A stretch of 64,000 nucleotides of DNA from assembly GCF_000807255.1 (NCBI RefSeq), contig NZ_CP009268.1:400384-464383 (forward strand). The letters run 5' to 3'. Under the pieces are notes generated by a model. The model did not search any database. It saw only the letters and a list, made by a program, of their open reading frames with translations, and was not told where the DNA came from. Position 1 is the stretch's first letter. Every line of letters begins with the position of its first letter. This DNA is from Clostridium pasteurianum DSM 525 = ATCC 6013. GTDB lineage: Bacteria; Bacillota; Clostridia; Clostridiales; Clostridiaceae. The position numbers and the translations under genes are program-made. Positions 7,366 through 36,884 of the stretch are shown one piece after another.

Positions 7366-7827
7366 ATGAGTGTAGAAAATGTAAGAAAATTTTTTATAGA
7401 CAGAGGAATTGAAGATCCTGTGTTTGAACTGCCGGAAAGTGGAGCAACAGTAGATCTTGCGTCAAAGACCATAGGAGTTGAACCGGAATTTATTGCAAAA
7501 ACTTTGGCTTTTAAGGTAAAGGAAAGAAATGTGCTTATAGTTACTAGAGGAGATGCTAAAGTAGATAATAAAAAATTTAAAAAGTATTTTAATACGAAAG
7601 CAAAAATGATTAAATCTGATGAAGTAGAAGATTTAACAGGGCACCCAGTAGGAGGAGTTTGCCCTTTTGGCGTTAAGGAAAATGTAGAGATATTTCTTGA
7701 TGAGTCCATAAGGGATTTTAAGTATGTTTATCCAGCAGCAGGCTCTAGGACTACAGCTTTAAAGATAGAACCAGATAAAATAGAAGAACTTACTGATGCA
7801 ATTTGGATAGATGTGTGTACATATTAG
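7366..7827 (+). CDS. ybaK: YbaK/EbsC-family aminoacyl-tRNA editing domain protein (Cys-tRNA(Pro) deacylase-like)
   Basis: About 150 aa with the GHPVGGVCPFG motif typical of the YbaK/ProX deacylase domain. Confidence 0.65.
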   Translation: MSVENVRKFFIDRGIEDPVFELPESGATVDLASKTIGVEPEFIAKTLAFKVKERNVLIVTRGDAKVDNKKFKKYFNTKAKMIKSDEVEDLTGHPVGGVCPFGVKENVEIFLDESIRDFKYVYPAAGSRTTALKIEPDKIEELTDAIWIDVCTY

Positions 7828-8061
7828 TTTTTCTTTTTAACCTTAATTGCTATTATGGGAAGTTTTGCTAAAGTATTTTTTCCAACATACATAATACAAA
7901 TTTTAAACATAGCAGTTGGAATTTTGTTGATATATTTTAGTATAAGGATGATTTTCAAAAAATAGTAGGGAATACAGAAATCAATATTAAATGAAAAAAA
8001 CACATTAGTTAAATATATAAAAATAATTCTAAAGAGCTAATAAAGAGAGGGGGGATTTAAA

Positions 8062-10107
8062 TTGGAAAATTCTAAATTCATAAAGAAGCTATTTGAGGAA
8101 GATGGATTTCATAGTTATATACCCAATTCCAAGGATGAAATAAATGAAAATCATGAAAGGATTGTTAGAACTTCAGGCTCTCACAATTGCGGCGGAAGAT
8201 GTGTTATAAAAGCTCATGTTAAAAATGAGCGAATTGTTAGAATTTCTACGGAGGATGATATAAAGGATACAAGGGAAAATCCACAGCTGAGAGGATGTCT
8301 TCGTTGTCGTTCTTATAGAAACCGTATGTATAATCATGATAGACTGAAATATCCCATGAAGAGAATTGGCAAAAGAGGTGAAGGCAAATTTAAGCGTATT
8401 AGCTGGGAAGAAGCTATAGACACCATTGCAGAAAATACTAAGAGAAGCATGAAAGAGTATGGACCTGATTCTATATATCTTCAATATGCTACTGGCAACG
8501 CAGGAAGGTTAGCGGAGAGAAACTGGATGAAAAGACTTATAGGAATGTATGGTGGTTATCTGGACTATTATGGCAGCTACAGTACAGCTTGTACTCAAAT
8601 TGCCACCCCCTATACCTTTGGAACCATCTATACCGGCAGCAGCAGGGATACCTGGCAAAATTCAAAATTGATTATTCTATTAGGGTTTAATCCTGCAGAA
8701 ACAATTCATGGTACTAATACTGCCTATTATTTAAAATTGGCAAAGGAAGCTGGAGCAAAAATTATAAGCATTGATCCAATATATTCAAATACAGCCATAG
8801 GACTTGCGGATAAATGGATACCAATTCGTCCCACTACGGATAGTGCTCTATTGGATGCTATGGCCTATGTTATAATTACAGAAAATCTACAGGATCAAGA
8901 TTTTCTTGATAAATATTGTTTAGGTTTTGATGAAGAGCATATGCCTTCAGGAATTCCAAAGGGAAACTCCTATAAAAGTTATATTTTGGGAGAAGGTGAA
9001 GATAAAATTCCAAAAACCCCAGCTTGGGCAGAAGCCATAACAGGTATACTGAGAGAGACAATTATTGAATTGGCAAGGGAGTATGCTGTAAATAGACCGG
9101 CTGCATTAATTGAAGGCTTTGGACCACAAAGACATGCCTATGGAGAACAATATACCAGAAGTGGTACTGTACTGGCCGCCATAACAGGTAATATAGGAAT
9201 TAATGGGGGATGGGCTTCTGGTACGGGGTATCCTGTCCGTCAGGAGTTTGTTGCATCCATTCCGTATTATAATCCAAATAAATCACAGATATCTGTATAC
9301 AGTTGGCCGGATGCCATTATAAGAGGAAAGGGAATGGGAGCAGATTTAAGTGTAAAGGGTGTAAAAAGGCTGTCTTCAAATATTAAGCTTATGTTTAATT
9401 TAGGTGGAAATACTCTTGTAAATCAGCATTCTGATTCTAATGGTACAGCTAAATTGTTAGAAGATGAAAGTTTAGTGGAATTTATAGTAGTCAGTGATCA
9501 CTTCTTGACTCCAAGTGCTAAATTTGCAGATATACTTTTGCCTGCGGACAATATGATGGAGAGGGAGGATATTGTAACTCCTTGGGGAATTGGAGACTAT
9601 GTAATATATATGAATAAAGCGGTGGACACGATTTTTGAGTGTCATAATGGGTATGATTGGATAAGAGATTTAGCGGATAAGCTTGGTCTTAAAGATGAAT
9701 TTACAGAGGGAAAATCCATAGAGCAGTGGATGGAATATTTGATTGGGGAAACTGCTAAAAGAAATAATGATTTTCCATCAATTAATGAATTTAAGGAAAA
9801 ATCCATATACAGATGGAACTATGATAAGTGCTCCATAGCCTTTGAAGATCAGATTGAAGACTTTGAAAATAATCCTTTTCCAACTCCATCAGGTAAAATA
9901 GAGATTTTTTCAAAGAGATTGTGGGGTATGAATAATCCTTTTGAAATTCCAGCAGTGCCTAAATACATATCGGCTTGGGAAGGACCGGAAGATCCTATAA
10001 AGACAATCTATCCTCTTCAATGTATAGGGCATCACTATAAACGACGTGTGCATTCTACCTTTGATAATACCAGCTGGATGGAAGAGGCAGGAAAACAGGA
10101 AATTTGA
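8062..10107 (+). CDS. Molybdopterin oxidoreductase catalytic subunit, DMSO-reductase family (DmsA-like), ending at an in-frame TGA
   Basis: N-terminal Fe-S motif HNCGGRC; MopB-like domain throughout; no twin-arginine signal; the same frame continues after the TGA at 10105-10107 into the MGD-binding C-terminal domain. Confidence 0.7.
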   Translation: MENSKFIKKLFEEDGFHSYIPNSKDEINENHERIVRTSGSHNCGGRCVIKAHVKNERIVRISTEDDIKDTRENPQLRGCLRCRSYRNRMYNHDRLKYPMKRIGKRGEGKFKRISWEEAIDTIAENTKRSMKEYGPDSIYLQYATGNAGRLAERNWMKRLIGMYGGYLDYYGSYSTACTQIATPYTFGTIYTGSSRDTWQNSKLIILLGFNPAETIHGTNTAYYLKLAKEAGAKIISIDPIYSNTAIGLADKWIPIRPTTDSALLDAMAYVIITENLQDQDFLDKYCLGFDEEHMPSGIPKGNSYKSYILGEGEDKIPKTPAWAEAITGILRETIIELAREYAVNRPAALIEGFGPQRHAYGEQYTRSGTVLAAITGNIGINGGWASGTGYPVRQEFVASIPYYNPNKSQISVYSWPDAIIRGKGMGADLSVKGVKRLSSNIKLMFNLGGNTLVNQHSDSNGTAKLLEDESLVEFIVVSDHFLTPSAKFADILLPADNMMEREDIVTPWGIGDYVIYMNKAVDTIFECHNGYDWIRDLADKLGLKDEFTEGKSIEQWMEYLIGETAKRNNDFPSINEFKEKSIYRWNYDKCSIAFEDQIEDFENNPFPTPSGKIEIFSKRLWGMNNPFEIPAVPKYISAWEGPEDPIKTIYPLQCIGHHYKRRVHSTFDNTSWMEEAGKQEI

Positions 10108-29545: not shown

Positions 29546-31204
29546 CTAAAATACTCTCAATATAGCTTCTATTTGAACTCTATTACTACTATTTAATTTA
29601 TTATCTACCTCCATATATAATTTCCTAATATTATCAATTTGATCTTTTTTAAGAGAAATGAAACTCCCATTAAACTTATTGATCCATGATTCTATTTCAT
29701 CATTAATTATTTGAACATAAGTATTACTTGATATTTTTAACATTTTTAATAACTGCATTATTGAAATCCATTTAGGATAGTAATTTATTACTTTTATTAG
29801 ATTTATATAAACATGAGTTTCATATACTTCAGACTCAAACAATTGAAATATCATATTTTCATCAAAGGATAGAATATCATTCTCTAAACATTTTGTTGCA
29901 TTATTTGATTCACTTATATTATCTGAGATTAGCTTATCAAGAACATATTGTGTTCCTTCTTTCGGATTCAACATATATATAGTAATTAATGCTATTTTTC
30001 TAACCTTAACATTTTCGTCATTAAGATATTTGAAAATATACTTGACATCCTCCTGTGCTCCCGTTTCTCTAATTCCAAATAGTACTCCATATAAATTATA
30101 ATTACTCTTATCTATTTCTCTTAAATACATTTCTCTAAAGTCCGCAATCCCCTTTTTCTTAAGTTTATATCTGGCATAATCTCTCACGGTATACGATTTA
30201 TCATATAAAAATGGTATAAGTGCTTTATGAAGATCTAGAACATTGATTTTTTCTAATATATCAATTGCTGCTACTCTGCATATTACATTTTTATTTTGTC
30301 TCAATACTTTAAAAATGACCCATGAATTATATCTATTCATAATTTCTTCAATTTTTTCAATTGCAGTTCTAAGGATAATAATATCTTTACTTTTTAGTCC
30401 CATATTAATAACTAAATTATCTGTTGTATTAATTCTTAGCAAATATTTAAAAAGCTTTCTTTTAACTAATATTTCTTCACTATTTTTATAAATATTAAGC
30501 AGTAAATCATAATTTCTCTGATCAATAATAAAATCTTCTAGTTTAAATAATATACCTGAATAATCGCTACGCCCCCAACTATTCATCCTATCTATAATTG
30601 GTAAACATTCGATAATATCTTTTAAATAATCATCTCTTATATACTTAATTAATTCTTTGTTAGCAAGATTTCTAACCTCTTTAACCCAATCATTAACCCT
30701 TATCATTATAAATTTGATTTTAAAACCATCTTCAAATTCTGATAATTTCTTTAATGCATCTTCTCGTACATACCCGTTTGGATGCAAAGTTAAAACTGAT
30801 AATATATAAATTGCTTCTTTTCCAAAACAATTTGTTAAATCAAATCTATACTTATTGGCTTCTCTATAATTTTTTTCAATTTCACAATCAATAGAATAAT
30901 AATAGTAACTACTTCTAAAATGTTCTGCAAAGAACAACAATTCCTTAATGGTCAAATCATCTATTATTCTCTTTAAGTGCTTTAATGCCTTTGAAGCAAC
31001 AACAAAATCTTTATCAAAACATAAAACAAGTAAATATTTCATAAGTCTAATATTATCAACATCTTGAATTTTGTCTAACTCTTCAACAAATATATTTCTT
31101 CTCTTTCTAGATAGTAGTATCAATCTTTTTTTATCATAATTTAATAATTTTTTTAGGGACTCATATGTCTTTGAATCCATATCTTTATAAGGTTCCTTAT
31201 TCAT
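29546..31204 (-). CDS. HEAT / PBS-lyase-repeat protein of unknown function (about 550 aa)
   Basis: At least 5 repeats of the xxxVRxxAxxxL type (HPNGYVREDALKKL, DWVKEVRNLANKEL, NKNVICRVAAIDIL, DKSYTVRDYARYKL, DENVKVRKIALITI); RBS AAGGAGG before the second ATG. Confidence 0.6.
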   Translation of the reverse strand: MNKEPYKDMDSKTYESLKKLLNYDKKRLILLSRKRRNIFVEELDKIQDVDNIRLMKYLLVLCFDKDFVVASKALKHLKRIIDDLTIKELLFFAEHFRSSYYYYSIDCEIEKNYREANKYRFDLTNCFGKEAIYILSVLTLHPNGYVREDALKKLSEFEDGFKIKFIMIRVNDWVKEVRNLANKELIKYIRDDYLKDIIECLPIIDRMNSWGRSDYSGILFKLEDFIIDQRNYDLLLNIYKNSEEILVKRKLFKYLLRINTTDNLVINMGLKSKDIIILRTAIEKIEEIMNRYNSWVIFKVLRQNKNVICRVAAIDILEKINVLDLHKALIPFLYDKSYTVRDYARYKLKKKGIADFREMYLREIDKSNYNLYGVLFGIRETGAQEDVKYIFKYLNDENVKVRKIALITIYMLNPKEGTQYVLDKLISDNISESNNATKCLENDILSFDENMIFQLFESEVYETHVYINLIKVINYYPKWISIMQLLKMLKISSNTYVQIINDEIESWINKFNGSFISLKKDQIDNIRKLYMEVDNKLNSSNRVQIEAILRVF

Positions 31205-31447
31205 ATTTACCTCCTTACCAGCTAAAATTTCCATATATAAGAATAACTAATAAATAATTTACTCTCTTGTTTATTAACATTTTTTCTAATCTAACTTTTG
31301 TATTTCATTGCTGTACAGAGTATAAGTAGAGAAGTAAAATCTTGGCTTTGTGTAAATTGCTATACATAGTACTATGTGAGTATTAGCGAATAATCATAGG
31401 GGAAAGAAATTTATAGATAGAAAATAAAGACTTATGATTTTAAGCCT

Positions 31448-32554
31448 TTACTTCTGGCACAACAGCTCATTTAATTGTCCTAAAAGATTACTCCCACCTG
31501 AAATTGATATATTGCCAACCTTATCACATATCTTTTCCAAGTACTCCATTTCTTTAAGTTTGTAAAGTGTTTCATTTTCATCCAAAAGTTTTGCCGTATT
31601 TAATAGGCTTCTTGTAGATGCAACCTCTTCACGCCTTGATATCACATTGGCTTGTGCTTTCTTTTCTGCAATTAAAACAGTATTCATTATATCTCTGATT
31701 TCTCCAGGCAATATGATATCCTTTATACCGGCATCAATAAATTCAACATAATATTCCCCTTGCTTTTCTTTAAGCTTTGAGAGTATAAAACCTGCAATCT
31801 CATCTTTTTGGTTTAAAAGTTCATCAAACTTAAATCTTCCAACATACTCACGAAGAACCATTTGAGAAAAAATATAAATTTGTGTTTTATAATCTTTGAT
31901 TTCAGATATAAGCTTAACAGCATCTATTATTTTAAAACTGCATACAAAATTGATACGTAAAGAAACTCTATCTGTAGTTAGAATTTCTTGACCTGAAATA
32001 TCCAGTTGTTGAATTCTTACGTCAATAAGTTCAAAGGTCACTTTAATTTTGCTATTCCAAAAGAAATAAATACCACTTGAAAGTTCTCTTTGAAATTTGC
32101 TATCAAAGTATACAACTGCTTTTTCGCCTTCAGAAACCTCAATTTTAATATAGAGCTTTTCAGTAATATATTTAAATATATTTTTATCAATCTCCTTCTT
32201 AACTTCTGGATTTGATATATCAATAACATCAAAGGTATGCTTCTTTAAAATATTCCAAAAAGCATATTCGCCACTTGTAAGAGTGTCTGTTATTCTTCCA
32301 TCTATATAATGTATGGCTACTTTATTGTCAGGTACATTTATAACTGTTACACTTTTCTCAAAATTTTCATCCTTTGTAAGCACATTAATATCAATTCCTG
32401 CTGTATTAACAACCTGACTGCTGTCTATACTTACTTTTGCTATTGTATAACCCATCCATGATAAATAGGAGTGCTTACCTGAATTCAACATTTTTATAAA
32501 TTTACCATACTTAAATAAGTATCCTCTTTCGTTTTCATTAATAATAATCTTCAT
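31448..32554 (-). CDS. SPFH/band-7 (stomatin/HflC-like) domain protein lacking an obvious transmembrane anchor
   Basis: The C-terminal half matches the SPFH core (TTDRVSLRINFVCSFKIID..., LREYVGRFKFDELL, IKDIILPGEIRDIMN, AEKKAQANVI); RBS AAAGAGGT before MKIIINE. Confidence 0.6.
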   Translation of the reverse strand: MKIIINENERGYLFKYGKFIKMLNSGKHSYLSWMGYTIAKVSIDSSQVVNTAGIDINVLTKDENFEKSVTVINVPDNKVAIHYIDGRITDTLTSGEYAFWNILKKHTFDVIDISNPEVKKEIDKNIFKYITEKLYIKIEVSEGEKAVVYFDSKFQRELSSGIYFFWNSKIKVTFELIDVRIQQLDISGQEILTTDRVSLRINFVCSFKIIDAVKLISEIKDYKTQIYIFSQMVLREYVGRFKFDELLNQKDEIAGFILSKLKEKQGEYYVEFIDAGIKDIILPGEIRDIMNTVLIAEKKAQANVISRREEVASTRSLLNTAKLLDENETLYKLKEMEYLEKICDKVGNISISGGSNLLGQLNELLCQK

Positions 32555-32921
32555 AATATTAACCTCTTTTACTAATAAAATTTTGATATAAGCTGTAATG
32601 CTCACATAATCTCTGCGGAATTTTAGTTAAATCATATAAAAAATATCAAGTCAAAGCTGCTGACCATATTTTTTATATGCCTAGCTCATATTAATTTACC
32701 TCGGCTCCTTCACATTTCAGTAAAGTCATGGAAATAAAAAATACAAAGCGGTATCCCTAAAATTTCAAGGCATTAATTACATCATTATAGTAGTGAATTC
32801 TTATGTCTACCTTTAATGTATACTATAATTGAGCACTACAGCTTAACACCATTTAATCTAAGACTTGGAAGGTCTTATTTTGAGAAGGTTTTAAACCTAA
32901 ACATAAAACATCGTCTGATTA

Positions 32922-32971
32922 CTCTACCAACTGAGATAACTGTATAGTCACAGTAGGGGATTCGAACCCCT
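32922..32971 (-). ncRNA. Permuted tRNA-like element (T-arm, closed acceptor-like hairpin, D-arm); candidate Y-RNA (YrlA-like) tRNA-mimic module or tRNA remnant
   Basis: The minus strand reads AGGGG-TTCGAAT-CCCCT a CTGTGACTATACAG tTATCTCAGTTGGTAGAG: a canonical T-loop and D-loop with an intervening 5-bp hairpin, but no anticodon arm in tRNA order. Confidence 0.45.
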
Positions 32972-33105
32972 GACACATCAGGTAATGACAATTATTTCGG
33001 AATACTAAGAAGTTAATACCTCTAGCACCGTAAAGCCTTAAAAAGCTTTTACATAGAAATAATATGCCAAATATATAAAAAGCTTTCGCCTATATATTTT
33101 AATAA

Positions 33106-34338
33106 CTATCCTTTAACAACGCCAACTGTTTTGAGTTTTTTTAATGGATCAACTAAATCAGTTTGATTAAGCATAACTTCATCTATGTTCTTATATGCAA
33201 AACGGCTTTCCTCAGCCACGTCATTTTTTTTATTTTTACCTAATATTATTCCTGATTTTTTAAGATCATTCATAACTTCTTCTGTAGTAAAATTTTTCAT
33301 TGCAGCCTTTCTTGAATATCTTCTTCCTGCACCATGAGAGGAGGAACAAAAGCTTTCTTTATTTCCCTTTCCCTGTACAATATAACTGTAGGAGCCCATA
33401 GCTCCAGGAATAACAGCTAGTTCACCCTGTTTTGCTCTTGTTGCACCCTTTCTATGAACCCAAACATTTTTGCAATAATGATTTTCAAGACTTGCATAAT
33501 TATGATGACAGTTAATTTCCAATGTATATTCAATATTAAGATCAGTATATTTCTCCAGCCATTTTTCTATAATAATTGTAACGGCTGTTATCATTTTTTC
33601 CCTGTTTTCATAAGCAAAATCAAGAGCTAAATTCATCCAATCTATATATCTTTTACCTTCATCAGTATCTACAGGCAAAAAAGCCAATCTGTATTCCAAT
33701 GGTACAGCTGAATGCCATTTTTCATTGAGTTCTCTTGCCATTTTATTAAAATGATCACATACTCTTCTCCCAAAATTACGACTTCCTGAATGAAGCATTA
33801 TACCTAAATTTCCTTCTTCATCTTCTTGAAGTTCAATAAAGTGATTTCCACCTCCAAGAGTTCCTATTTGAAAGTATCCATCTTCAATCTGATCCAAAAG
33901 TTCAACATCCTTTTCATATTTATTCATTTCATTTTTGGCTTTATCAAGTGTATAGGAGCTTTGTATTGTCTTGTGATGTTTAAAGGAAACAGGTATATTT
34001 CTTAATATGTCTCCAATAATTCCCTGAATCAATGATCCATTTGGAGTTTTAATATCTTTTATATACTGTACCTTTATATTAGTTCCTACAAAAGCCATGC
34101 CACAACCTATATCTACACCAACAGCATTTGGAATAATAACTCCTTCAGCTGCAATGACTCCACCTATGGGCATTCCCTTTCCAGTATGTGTATCCGGCAT
34201 AAGTGATACCCACTTATGTATAAAGGGAAGTTGAGATAGATTGTATGCTTGTTCAAGGCAGCTTTCCTCTATACTAGTCTCACCTTGAAGCCATATTTTA
34301 ATTGGATGTTTTGTTTTTTTACTGCAAATGACAAACAT
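33106..34338 (-). CDS. rtcB: RtcB-family RNA 3'-phosphate/2',3'-cyclic-phosphate ligase
   Basis: Motifs MPDTHTGKG, AVGVDIGCGMAF, GGGNHFIEL, HSGSRNFG, CHHNYA, HRKGATRA, PGAMGSYSY and SSSHGAGR; RBS AAGGAG 8 nt before the ATG at 34338. Confidence 0.9.
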   Translation of the reverse strand: MFVICSKKTKHPIKIWLQGETSIEESCLEQAYNLSQLPFIHKWVSLMPDTHTGKGMPIGGVIAAEGVIIPNAVGVDIGCGMAFVGTNIKVQYIKDIKTPNGSLIQGIIGDILRNIPVSFKHHKTIQSSYTLDKAKNEMNKYEKDVELLDQIEDGYFQIGTLGGGNHFIELQEDEEGNLGIMLHSGSRNFGRRVCDHFNKMARELNEKWHSAVPLEYRLAFLPVDTDEGKRYIDWMNLALDFAYENREKMITAVTIIIEKWLEKYTDLNIEYTLEINCHHNYASLENHYCKNVWVHRKGATRAKQGELAVIPGAMGSYSYIVQGKGNKESFCSSSHGAGRRYSRKAAMKNFTTEEVMNDLKKSGIILGKNKKNDVAEESRFAYKNIDEVMLNQTDLVDPLKKLKTVGVVKG

Positions 34339-34668
34339 ATAGGTCACTCCTTGTTTATAATCTAAGATAAGCTATATAAATAGAGTTTTAATATCCTTTT
34401 GTGATACTTAACATCGTTATCCATGAACATAATCTCTCTTTATCCCCACAAATATGGGAGTATTAGATATGGTAGTCATCGGATAAAATTATTAATTGTT
34501 GAAGTTGAAGTGGCTTATCTATGTTTTAATATTAACATCACAAATAATAGTTTCCATTTAAAAAAAGTTGCGAACTTACTTTATTAATTGATTTTAAATT
34601 TATAAATTGATAGAATAAAATTTAATTGAGTATAATATCTTATACCTAAACACAGGAAGGTCAATTAT

Positions 34669-35910
34669 ATGAAGAATTTTTCAGAACTAATTAAAAACTT
34701 TGATAAAATTAGAGATTATATGAGAGATTTTTTTGTATATGGCTTTAAATCCAGAAGTAATTTTACTCAAAAAAGTCTCCGCACCTATGATAATGAGAAA
34801 AGAAGAATTGAAAGTTATCTAGGTGATTGCATAAAATATAACAATATGAATGGAGAAAAAAATACTTTTATCTCCTTAGACAGCTCCAGTGTAACTGAAA
34901 ATCCCCTTTATTCTGTTTGGAAGGCAAAGAGTTTCACAAACAATGATATAATGCTTCATTTCTATTTACTGGATATATTAACATATGAATCTTTACTTGA
35001 TATAGAACAATTGTCAGATAAAATTTGTGAGAGATATAGTACATGCTTTGACACTCAAACAGTAAGAAATAAAGTTAAAGAATCTGTAAAAGAGGGAATT
35101 TTAAACTCCTGCAAGCAGGGGAGAAAATTATACTATTCTCTATCAAGGGATTTTCTTAAAACATTAGTGAATAACTATGATGATATAATAGATGCTTTAA
35201 AATACTATCAGGCAATAGCACCTTTTGGTGTTATAGGCAGCTATATTCTTGACAATGAAGAAAATAAAAATGATATTTTCCACTTTAAACATCATTTTGT
35301 TGTCCATACACTAGAAGATAAAGTTCTACTTGAGATTTTAAAAGCCATAAATGAAAAAAGAGAGATAAATTTTATTAATAAAAGTCCACGTAGTGAATAT
35401 ATACTAAAAGTTTCTGGTGTACCCCTTAAAATATTTGTAAGTAATCAAACTGGCAGGCGTTACGTTAATATATACAATAAGAAAAGAAAGCGTTTTGTAA
35501 ATTACAGATTGGATTACATAAAGTCCGTTAATATATTGGATATATGTATAGAGTATGATTTTTTTAAGCAGAAACTGGAGAAAAATTTGGATAAATGCTG
35601 GGGAGTATCCTTTGGCAATAGCATTAGAGGTAAGACATTTTATGCTAAGTTTTATGTTGATGAGGAAAGGGAACTGTATATACTTGATCGCATAAAGAAA
35701 GAAGGTCGAAAGGGTACACTTAAAAAAGTTGATAAAAATATCTATATTTATTCAAAGGAAATCTTTGATACAAATGAAATAATGTCCTGGATAAAGAGTT
35801 TTACGGGAAGAATTATATCTATTGAAAGCGGAGACAAATTTGTAGATGAAAGATTTTATAGCGATATGAAAAAGATGAAAGAAATGTATTTAGGTGGTGA
35901 TACTGACTGA
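34669..35910 (+). CDS. WYL-domain transcriptional regulator (PafB/PafC-like; N-terminal wHTH, WYL, WCX)
   Basis: WYL-like block PLKIFVSNQTGRRYVNIYNKKRKRFVNYRLDYIKSV and a C-terminal WCX-like block. Confidence 0.6.
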   Translation: MKNFSELIKNFDKIRDYMRDFFVYGFKSRSNFTQKSLRTYDNEKRRIESYLGDCIKYNNMNGEKNTFISLDSSSVTENPLYSVWKAKSFTNNDIMLHFYLLDILTYESLLDIEQLSDKICERYSTCFDTQTVRNKVKESVKEGILNSCKQGRKLYYSLSRDFLKTLVNNYDDIIDALKYYQAIAPFGVIGSYILDNEENKNDIFHFKHHFVVHTLEDKVLLEILKAINEKREINFINKSPRSEYILKVSGVPLKIFVSNQTGRRYVNIYNKKRKRFVNYRLDYIKSVNILDICIEYDFFKQKLEKNLDKCWGVSFGNSIRGKTFYAKFYVDEERELYILDRIKKEGRKGTLKKVDKNIYIYSKEIFDTNEIMSWIKSFTGRIISIESGDKFVDERFYSDMKKMKEMYLGGDTD

Positions 35911-36884
35911 TGGAACTATTTTCTGAAATTTACAATTGTTATTATAATGTAATAACAAAAATTTTAAATACCTGTAGTAACACTCCTATTTCCAAAGAGG
36001 ATATAAGCAAAATTATTAAGGATAATGCTTTCTGTGAAAGTGCTTTTTATATATTTCCAAAACTTATAGATGGGGATTGGAATTTGATTACACAGGATAA
36101 AGAAAAATTTGTATCAAAATTAAAGGGAACCATTAAAAGGCCTGTAACACTTTTGGAAAAAGCCTGGTTAAAATCACTAATTCAAGATAAAAGAATATCA
36201 TTATTTTTAAAGGATGAGCAAATTAGAGTTTTAGATGAATATCTATCTGAAATTGAACCTCTGTTTAATGTAAATGACTTTTACAACTACGATACTTTTT
36301 CAGATGGTGATGATTATGAGAATCCTGAATATATACGTAATTTTCGATCCATATTATCCGCTTTTAAAAGTAAACAAGCTGTAACAATATCCTTTGAAAG
36401 CAGTAAGGGTAATCGTATCACAGGAAATTATATCCCTGTAAAAATAGAGTATTCAAATAAAAATGATAAATTTAGAGTTCACACTTTTAGAATATACCAT
36501 GGGAAAATTAGAAATACTGAAATAATAAATATAGGAAGAGTTAAAAGTGTACAGGCCTCTAAGGAAAGTTTTAATTTTAGTCTAAATATTGATATTTATG
36601 AAAAAATCAATAAATGCAAAGAACCTGTTGTAATAGAAATATCTGATGAACGTAATGCATTGGAGAGGTGTATGCTAAATTTTGCAAGTTTTCAAAAACA
36701 TACAGAATACCATAAAGATACTCAAAAGTATATAACTTATATTTATTATGATATGAAGGATGAAACTGAACTATTAATACGGATACTTTCCTTTGGTCCT
36801 GTAATAAAAGTGTTAGGTCCTGATAGATTTTTAAATATTTTAAAGAAGAGAATAAAAAGACAGGTAGAGTTGATGGAAATTTAG
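35910..36884 (+). CDS. WYL-domain protein, a tandem paralog of the upstream regulator (PafC-like)
   Basis: WYL-like block AVTISFESSKGNRITGNYIPVKIEYSNKNDKFRVHTFRIYHGKIRNTEIINIGRVKSV; WCX-like C-terminus LIRILSFGPVIKVLGPDRF; ATG overlaps the previous TGA. Confidence 0.55.
   Translation: MELFSEIYNCYYNVITKILNTCSNTPISKEDISKIIKDNAFCESAFYIFPKLIDGDWNLITQDKEKFVSKLKGTIKRPVTLLEKAWLKSLIQDKRISLFLKDEQIRVLDEYLSEIEPLFNVNDFYNYDTFSDGDDYENPEYIRNFRSILSAFKSKQAVTISFESSKGNRITGNYIPVKIEYSNKNDKFRVHTFRIYHGKIRNTEIINIGRVKSVQASKESFNFSLNIDIYEKINKCKEPVVIEISDERNALERCMLNFASFQKHTEYHKDTQKYITYIYYDMKDETELLIRILSFGPVIKVLGPDRFLNILKKRIKRQVELMEI

Follow-up and report, generated by a model that had tools for sequence, protein, structure and literature searches.

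In Escherichia coli and Salmonella the operon of the RNA ligase RtcB is controlled by a divergently encoded ligand-sensing factor, RtcR, which senses tRNA fragments (PMC7790460; PMC10159003). The locus described here raises the question of which regulator takes over this role where RtcR is absent. It lies in a stretch of 64,000 nucleotides from Clostridium pasteurianum DSM 525 = ATCC 6013 (NZ_CP009268.1, positions 400,384 to 464,383), which we call the window and to which all coordinates refer, and it consists of rtcB and two tandem genes transcribed divergently from it, here named wylA and wylB, whose products carry a WYL domain. An earlier note on this DNA had proposed that the tandem pair regulates the RtcB module in place of RtcR. 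Protein folds, synteny, a conserved cis-element and natural gene fusions support this proposal, and we regard it as fairly probable that WylA and WylB form a heteromeric, PafBC-like regulator which is dedicated to the neighboring RNA-damage operon of rtcB, a tRNA-like RNA and an SPFH/Band-7 gene, and which probably acts as its activator. The features on which this reading is built are the following:

33106–34338, minus strand: rtcB, 3'-phosphate/5'-OH RNA ligase, 410 amino acids (aa) from the ATG at 34338 (public gene calls on identical C. pasteurianum DNA)
34529–34537, minus strand: predicted extended −10 element of rtcB (TGTTAATAT), which fits the motif-anchored logo exactly
34553–34574, minus strand: asymmetric 22-bp element, a conserved motif and the presumed WylAB operator
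34607–34636, plus strand: sigma70-like wylAB promoter (TTGATA, 18-nt spacer, TATAAT; 11/12 matches)
34669–35910, plus strand: wylA, 413 aa; N-terminal domain 1–95, winged helix-turn-helix (HTH) about 91–158, WYL 219–292, WCX 296–408
35910–36884, plus strand: wylB, 324 aa; winged HTH 1–70, WYL 139–216, WCX 228–321

The RNA ligase and the WylA-WylB pair

The rtcB product covers the whole Pfam model PF01139 (E 3e-113) and could be aligned to RtcB of P. horikoshii (1UC2/4DWQ) with an E-value of 2e-46. In this alignment D49, H51, D76, C79, N165, H166, H183, H279 and H335 are kept; these residues represent all metal-binding, GTP-binding and nucleophile positions, H335 being the histidine that is guanylylated. 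The end-to-end match together with the residue alignment bears out the description of a full-length ligase with every catalytic motif. The longest open reading frame (ORF) extends to a GTG at 34347 (33106–34347, minus strand, 413 aa), and the divergent region between rtcB and wylA measures 321–330 bp, in agreement with the approximately 320 bp reported before; all three ORFs lie where the earlier note had placed them.

Genes for RtcA, RtcR, archease or a Ro protein were not found among the Pfam-annotated genes within 10 kb on either side of the locus. In the six-frame translation of the whole 64-kb window the sigma54-activator motifs GAFTGA and GESGTGKE did not occur, nor did the RtcA motif GGGQxxR. 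The absence of RtcR and rtcA claimed in the earlier note thus holds within 10 kb by Pfam and within the window by motif scan, the remainder of the genome lying outside this scope.

For the assignment of WylA and WylB, hidden Markov models (HMMs) and structural comparison were combined. WylA matches the Pfam family WYL (PF13280) with 23.5 bits, narrowly above the gathering score of 21.8, and WylB has no Pfam match of its own; a WYL model of PADLOC matches both proteins (WylA E 3e-10, WylB E 2.8e-6). Among 22 WylB orthologs, ten match Pfam WYL and five Pfam WCX. HTH_11, the third family for which the earlier note had suggested a search, gave no match in Pfam. Profile searches of the PDB sequences with both families yielded weak matches only (E ≥ 0.06), so that a comparison of folds was needed. 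Monomer models were calculated with AlphaFold from alignments of 101 (WylA) and 105 (WylB) sequences and reached pLDDT values of 75 for WylA, in which residues 1–100 are poorly modelled, and 87.5 for WylB. Both models contain a winged HTH made of three helices followed by a beta hairpin (WylB 1–70, WylA 91–158), then, after a linker, the Sm-like beta barrel of the WYL domain and, as C-terminal dimerization domain, WCX.

In Foldseek searches of the PDB the top matches of both models were WYL regulators only (E 1e-10 to 1e-4): DriD with DNA and single-stranded DNA, PafBC with RNA polymerase, the PafBC protein of A. aurescens, BrxR, CapW and WYL1. WylA was matched by PafBC in complex with RNA polymerase (9fnd, 1e-10) and DriD (8tp8, 3e-10), besides BrxR, CapW and WYL1, and WylB by DriD (3e-10) and PafBC (8e-10), besides CapW and BrxR (E 3e-10 to 1e-5). 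The full-length alignments take in the HTH domains of DriD and PafBC, and 7TZV and 9CU3, two structures of the DriD C-domain, are matched by the C-terminal domain of either model. By HMM match and predicted fold, WylA and WylB are therefore HTH-WYL-WCX regulators. The earlier designation of both as WYL-domain proteins stands on these grounds, with the reservation that WylB itself fails Pfam and is recognized by PADLOC and through its orthologs.

Conserved basic residues are GRR 262–264, R275 and R280 in WylA and K187, R189 and R210 in WylB. Conservation in WylA is highest in its family-specific N-terminal domain of about 95 aa, which includes the helix KSxRTYDNEKRRIESY and occurs in 635 representative proteins. 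In the 150 best matches listed it is located at or near the N-terminus, either of proteins of up to about 410 aa or of longer fusions; the shorter of these proteins are probably fragments.

Relatives of WylA were collected by a scan of one genome per species, which returned 473 genomes, and the best 80 of these 473 loci were examined in detail. Each locus comprises 21 kb, and all were picked via wylA; they derive from Clostridiaceae, Lachnospiraceae, Oscillospiraceae, Anaerocolumna, Enterocloster, Blautia and others, with WylA identities of 42–66%. In the window wylA and wylB are translationally coupled, with a 1-nt overlap of the wylA stop and the wylB start codon (TGATG), and in all 80 genome loci wylB is the next gene after wylA. 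Moreover, three divergent metagenome proteins (P0245, P0260 and P0276, of 728, 796 and 855 aa) are natural WylA-WylB fusions: each has the WylA N-terminal domain at its start, and full-length WylB aligns to the C-terminal half with 36–38% identity. The length of the linker differs among the three. Natural gene fusions are a classic sign of a physical complex, and the fusions, the gene overlap and the invariable pairing make a heterodimer of WylA and WylB likely.

The two proteins had been described as paralogous, which proved too strong. BLASTP detects no significant similarity between WylA and WylB, so that recent paralogy was dropped, and in a profile-profile comparison the WYL domains alone can be aligned (E 0.006). 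Judged from these sequence comparisons, the two partners are distantly related and not close paralogs.

Conserved gene order and the 22-bp element

Within the 80 loci a full-length rtcB lies adjacent and divergent to wylA in 54, at WylA identities of 45–66%. Five further loci contain rtcB fragments, which are cut by a contig end or represent pseudogene remnants, and in two rtcB is found within a few kb and is not adjacent. An SPFH/Band-7 gene occupies the rtcB position in eight loci that have no rtcB, and in six loci this position is taken by a gene with DUF2828 and DUF7788/vWA domains (Ro/TROVE-like). Two loci carry none of these genes despite adequate flanks, and in three the flanks are too short to judge. 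Altogether, 75 of the 80 loci contain some RNA-repair cargo, that is RtcB, SPFH or the Ro-like DUF2828/vWA protein, and the partners conserved in other genomes are all components of RNA repair or RNA quality control. Linkage of the two regulator genes to rtcB, on which the earlier note had made its proposal depend, is present in Clostridiaceae, Lachnospiraceae and Oscillospiraceae.

The DUF2828 genes are encoded on the minus strand (L012, 7951–9432; L021, 7634–9148; also L025, L045, L061 and L072), and in these loci WylAB and the operator are kept; in L028 and L036 rtcB and DUF2828 are both present. Between the regulators and the Ro-like gene the DUF2828 loci carry tRNA-like or Y-like RNAs, three of which reach the Rfam gathering score for tRNA, with a large insertion. 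Remnants of rtcB are preserved between the operator and the RNA and SPFH genes in L001 (9646–9828) and L010 (9694–9880), and these indicate that the layout with SPFH only can arise via decay of rtcB. In Clostridium muellerianum (L002, 7881–9524, minus strand) wylAB faces an ORF of 547 aa, of which approximately the first 26 residues resemble the RtcB N-terminus (KKTKKPIKIWL) and the rest has neither a Pfam match nor similarity to RtcB; the 22-bp motif is still located upstream of this ORF.

The element shared by these loci reads TTCGCAACTTTTTTTAAATGGA on the rtcB-sense strand of the window and has the consensus TTCGCAAnnTTTTTTAAATGAT. In wylA sense it is written ATCATTTAAAAAAnnnTGCGAA and occurs in 54 of the 54 divergent intergenic regions. 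With a position weight matrix derived from these 54 sites, exactly one match per 21-kb locus was obtained in 76 of the 80 loci, and a single one in the 64-kb window. In three loci with rearranged gene order (L049, L057 and L065) the element is found beside rtcB and away from wylA; it travels with rtcB and hence is part of the promoter on the rtcB side. As a reciprocal test, metagenome contigs were searched with the bare 22-bp motif only. This search returned 80 loci, 57 of which have wylA, wylB, rtcB or SPFH beside the motif, and 46 of these 57 have wylA. The two conserved blocks of the site, TTCGCAA and AAATGAT, differ from each other, as would fit two different DNA-binding subunits.

To obtain a promoter logo, 107 unique sequences were aligned by the motif in rtcB orientation. 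The logo consists of TTCGCAAnnTTTTTTAAATGAT, a gap of exactly 18 nt, TGnTAnnAT and, 6–7 nt further on, CA. In the window the corresponding −10 hexamer is located at 34534–34529 and its TG at 34537–34536, which places the predicted start of rtcB transcription near 34522 and the centre of the 22-bp site at about −41.5. The position expected for a −35 hexamer reads ATGATn and has no −35 consensus, and a scan with the sigma70 consensus detected no promoter on the rtcB side. The predicted 5' untranslated region of rtcB (34339–34522) is unusually long with about 184 nt; in compact loci it measures about 20–60 nt. On the opposite strand the wylAB promoter is the best promoter-like site of the region and lies downstream of the motif, 33 nt before the ATG of wylA.

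Two other interpretations of this region were abandoned. A sigma54 promoter or control by RtcR was dropped, as the motif lacks GG-N10-GC and the window lacks an enhancer-binding-protein motif. The TTGCGA within the motif was also considered as the −35 element of wylA and dropped, since its distance to the downstream TATAAT-like hexamers varies between 6 and 26 nt and since the motif accompanies rtcB in the rearranged loci.

The downstream tRNA-like RNA and SPFH/Band-7 gene

The unit is larger than the RtcB module described in the earlier note. Downstream of rtcB and on the same strand, the following elements belong to it:

32912–32982, minus strand: tRNA-like RNA of the YrlA (Y RNA-like) type, from a partial Rfam match and covariation
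32860–32898, minus strand: putative second, degenerate RNA element, read directly from the window sequence
31448–32554, minus strand: SPFH/Band-7 protein, 368 aa from the ATG at 32554 (public gene call); Pfam Band_7, E 1e-29

The SPFH gene begins 550 bp downstream of rtcB. No plausible ORF was found in this 550-bp gap, and no terminator-like site in the stretch from rtcB over the RNA to SPFH. An SPFH homolog is kept in 36 of the 54 loci with an adjacent divergent rtcB, and in 47 of the 80 loci one follows rtcB or the RNA, as the last conserved gene of the operon. By eye, the protein shows no obvious N-terminal membrane segment.

The tRNA-like RNA is permuted: it is composed, in this order, of a closing stem, a T-arm (GGGGTTCGAATCCCC), an acceptor-like hairpin and a D-arm. 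The Rfam YrlA model matches positions 32916–32979 with 32.2 bits and E 3.4e-5; the gathering score of 69 is not reached, and the match covers model positions 23–86 of 114. An ordinary tRNA gene was ruled out with ARAGORN, which found no tRNA in the window and essentially no canonical tRNA in 66 intergenic regions (three marginal calls). The four-helix structure is well supported by covariation in an alignment of 48 homologous elements: its 19 base pairs are formed in 92% of cases, both sides have changed in 16 of the 19 pairs, and the covariation score is 0.656, whereas shuffled controls gave 0.19 and slid controls 0.19 at most.

Occurrence of the RNA follows that of SPFH. Every SPFH-bearing locus has one to four T-loop elements upstream of the SPFH gene, and in the scannable loci without a full-length SPFH match T-loop elements are absent in 16 of 19. 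Each of the three exceptions (L004, L007 and L060) has a partial SPFH match, which in L007 and L060 is cut by the contig end. In the putative second RNA element of the window a T-arm that has decayed (aggtttaaaacct) precedes a conserved hairpin (aagaccttccaagtctt), and a conserved TGTAGTGCTCA comes after the hairpin. In the matching region of relatives the second T-arm is intact and is followed by AGACCTnnCAAGTCT.

Two further ORFs near operons of this type should be mentioned. Directly downstream of the SPFH gene of the window lies an ORF for a HEAT-repeat protein of 562 aa (29546–31234, minus strand). It was considered as a Ro-like partner and dropped, as it has no homolog in the 80 loci and gave generic HEAT-repeat matches only; the lack of homologs places it probably outside the module. 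In a Lachnospiraceae locus without SPFH (L071) an ORF of 397 aa with no assigned function (7431–8624, minus strand) abuts the end of rtcB.

Mode of regulation and relation to known systems

From these observations the following mechanism can be proposed. WylA and WylB would form a heteromeric HTH-WYL-WCX transcription factor that occupies the single asymmetric 22-bp site at 34553–34574, about 41.5 bp upstream of the rtcB start. A single-stranded nucleic acid signalling damage would serve as the ligand of their WYL domains, with cleaved RNA or tRNA fragments as the obvious candidate for an RNA-repair operon. Once bound, WylAB would recruit sigmaA RNA polymerase to the extended −10 promoter lacking a −35 element, or adapt the polymerase to it, and ligase, RNA cofactor and SPFH scaffold would be switched on together. 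WylAB would in this way be the functional counterpart of RtcR, the CARF/sigma54 activator of Proteobacteria. Binding of the element by the heteromer is the simplest reading of the observation that wylAB, as the only regulator-like component, and the element stay constant while the cargo varies between rtcB, RNA with SPFH and RNA with the Ro-like gene. RtcR senses tRNA fragments and WYL domains bind single-stranded nucleic acids, so that by analogy the signal is probably a nucleic acid produced by damage.

Among the regulators of known structure, PafBC (PDB 6SJ9, 7P5X and 9FND), which activates the DNA-damage response of mycobacteria and other actinobacteria, is the top structural match for WylA, and several traits are shared beyond the fold. 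PafBC, too, is encoded by two tandem HTH-WYL-WCX genes with single-chain fusions in some species; the A. aurescens protein (6SJ9) is one polypeptide, like the WylA-WylB fusions. Its target promoters combine a −10 element with a conserved upstream element in place of the −35, and PafBC acts by "sigma adaptation". However, there is no sequence orthology, the profile matches to PafBC chains of the PDB having E-values of 0.08–0.6 and covering single domains only, and WylA possesses the additional conserved N-terminal domain of about 95 aa. In contrast to the actinobacterial PafBC, WylAB belongs to Clostridia and has rtcB and SPFH as neighbors instead of a pafA/proteasome context; its motif TTCGCAAnnTTTTTTAAATGAT is unrelated to the RecA-NDp motif of PafBC, and its regulon appears to be one RNA-repair operon, whereas that of PafBC is a DNA-damage regulon. 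DriD of Caulobacter (PDB 8TP8 and 9PFQ) is the best full-length structural match to WylB (E 3e-10, TM 0.52). It is likewise an activator whose WYL domain binds single-stranded nucleic acid, but it is a homodimer encoded by one gene, senses single-stranded DNA, controls SOS-independent DNA-damage genes and shares about 11% identity.

With the RtcR-RtcBA system the locus has in common the RtcB ligase and its probable control by a divergent, presumably ligand-sensing factor; RtcR, RtcA, Ro/Rsr and the sigma54-activator motif are lacking in the window. In RtcR a CARF domain is joined to a sigma54-type AAA+ domain and an HTH, while here a WYL pair faces a sigmaA-type promoter. The Salmonella RtcB operon includes tRNA-like Y RNAs (PMC7790460; 10.1101/312249). 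The downstream RNA of the window resembles YrlA (Rfam RF02553) in its permuted core with T-arm, acceptor-like hairpin, D-arm and closing stem; it differs in its score (32 versus the 69 bits of the gathering score), in the Ro-binding stem, which was not detected, and in the absence of a Ro/Rsr gene from the window. According to 10.1101/312249, YrlA is occasionally adjacent to Band-7 genes, and Burroughs and Aravind (2016), as summarized there, described RtcB beside Band-7 and a tRNA-like RNA termed "b7a-tRNA". The window contains both features of this predicted system, an SPFH/Band-7 gene and a tRNA-like RNA, next to RtcB. To our knowledge this class has been predicted and not been characterized experimentally.

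Whether WylAB activates or represses its target is the point on which the readings differ most. BrxR and CapW, two other WYL regulators, are repressors, and both are among the structural matches. In a model with the same parts and the same site, WylAB would be a ligand-released repressor of this type that sits on −31 to −52, keeps RNA polymerase from the extended −10 promoter and is removed by the damage signal. Extended −10 promoters with a TGn motif can do without a −35 element and do not strictly require an activator, which makes this model the main alternative; in addition, 13 nt separate the site from the start codon of wylA where the intergenic region is shortest, and this position suggests that wylAB is at least autorepressed. 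On the other hand, both proteins find their top structural matches in activators, PafBC and DriD, complexes with RNA polymerase included. Operators of repressors are usually tolerant in position, while here the gap of 18 nt is fixed across the 107 unique sequences, and fixed spacing with a centre at −41.5 is classic activator geometry. Together with the missing −35 element and the closest structures, this favors activation, which we consider most likely by analogy; the repressor model is possible, though clearly the less probable of the two. It could also be argued that the 22-bp element is a mere promoter feature, for instance an UP-like A/T tract with a weak −35, or is bound by another factor, and that WylAB acts on itself or on unlinked genes with the adjacency to rtcB reflecting shared mobility. 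The T6-A3 tract is indeed similar to UP elements, ATGAT shares TGA with TTGACA at a spacing of 17 nt, and in some loci rtcB and the motif occur without wylAB on the contig. But the GC-containing block TTCGCAA does not vary between families whose proteins share only 45% identity, which is unexpected for a generic UP element; each locus has the motif once, and beside the module only, it stays constant with wylAB while the cargo changes between rtcB, SPFH and DUF2828, and in the window the module has no mobile-element genes at its flanks. We therefore hold this explanation to be improbable. Still less credence is given to WylAB as a BrxR/CapW-type regulator of an anti-phage defence island in which rtcB is a mere neighbor. 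WYL regulators are common beside defence systems, and the PADLOC WYL models matching both proteins come from CRISPR-associated contexts; yet RtcB, SPFH and the HEAT-repeat protein have no convincing match to PADLOC defence proteins, the genes within 10 kb are housekeeping or metabolic ones, and the conserved partners elsewhere all belong to RNA repair or RNA quality control.

Several points weigh against activation of the operon by a WylAB heteromer. The choice of genome loci via wylA means that the association of wylA with rtcB is partly built into that set. The reciprocal search compensates for this in part; 23 of its 80 motif matches have no module gene nearby, which may be due to chance or short contigs, and four metagenome loci (L091, L105, L116 and L128) contain rtcB and the motif and no wylAB on the available DNA. 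Binding of the motif by WylAB is suggested by their co-occurrence alone, and WylA and WylB could form separate homodimers. For the N-terminal domain of WylA the model has low confidence. The known ligands of PafBC, DriD and CapW are single-stranded DNA and not RNA, and a site overlapping the −35 region fits repression as well.

The proposal can be extended further. WylAB may be a heteromeric sensor of cleaved RNA or tRNA ends, such as those with a 2',3'-cyclic phosphate, that acts through a PafBC-like adaptation of sigmaA on a modular "RNA-damage regulon" of Clostridia, in which one regulator and one operator serve interchangeable RtcB, SPFH with tRNA-like RNAs, or Ro-like DUF2828/vWA proteins with Y-like RNAs. 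We put this joint reading forward tentatively, with somewhat more doubt than confidence. A related suggestion comes from the Aravind group, namely that CARF and WYL factors may be sensors of RNAs carrying cyclic-phosphate ends and may control RNA repair (PMC9503650; PMC7824862). Later papers of this group cite the 2016 study for WYL factors, so that the general link between WYL proteins and RNA repair may already be in print. The top-ranked literature on RtcB and WYL, a coverage outside which the original 2016 study lies, contained no description of the WylAB pair, its operator, the promoter geometry or the fusions. The earlier note had called the module largely undescribed in Firmicutes; this applies to the regulator and the cis-element and not to the repair module, which had been predicted in the literature.

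We know of no sensing of RNA damage coupled to RtcB induction outside Proteobacteria, and of few cases in which the in vivo signal of a WYL domain is known, all of them DNA damage or phage. The locus offers a compact and testable system of two small proteins, one near-invariant operator and a defined promoter geometry, and relatives of WylA occur in at least 473 species-level genomes, including many Lachnospiraceae and Oscillospiraceae of the human gut. If the WYL pair indeed binds damaged RNA, signalling by WYL domains would extend from DNA damage to RNA damage, and CARF/sigma54 and WYL/sigmaA would represent convergent solutions to one regulatory problem.

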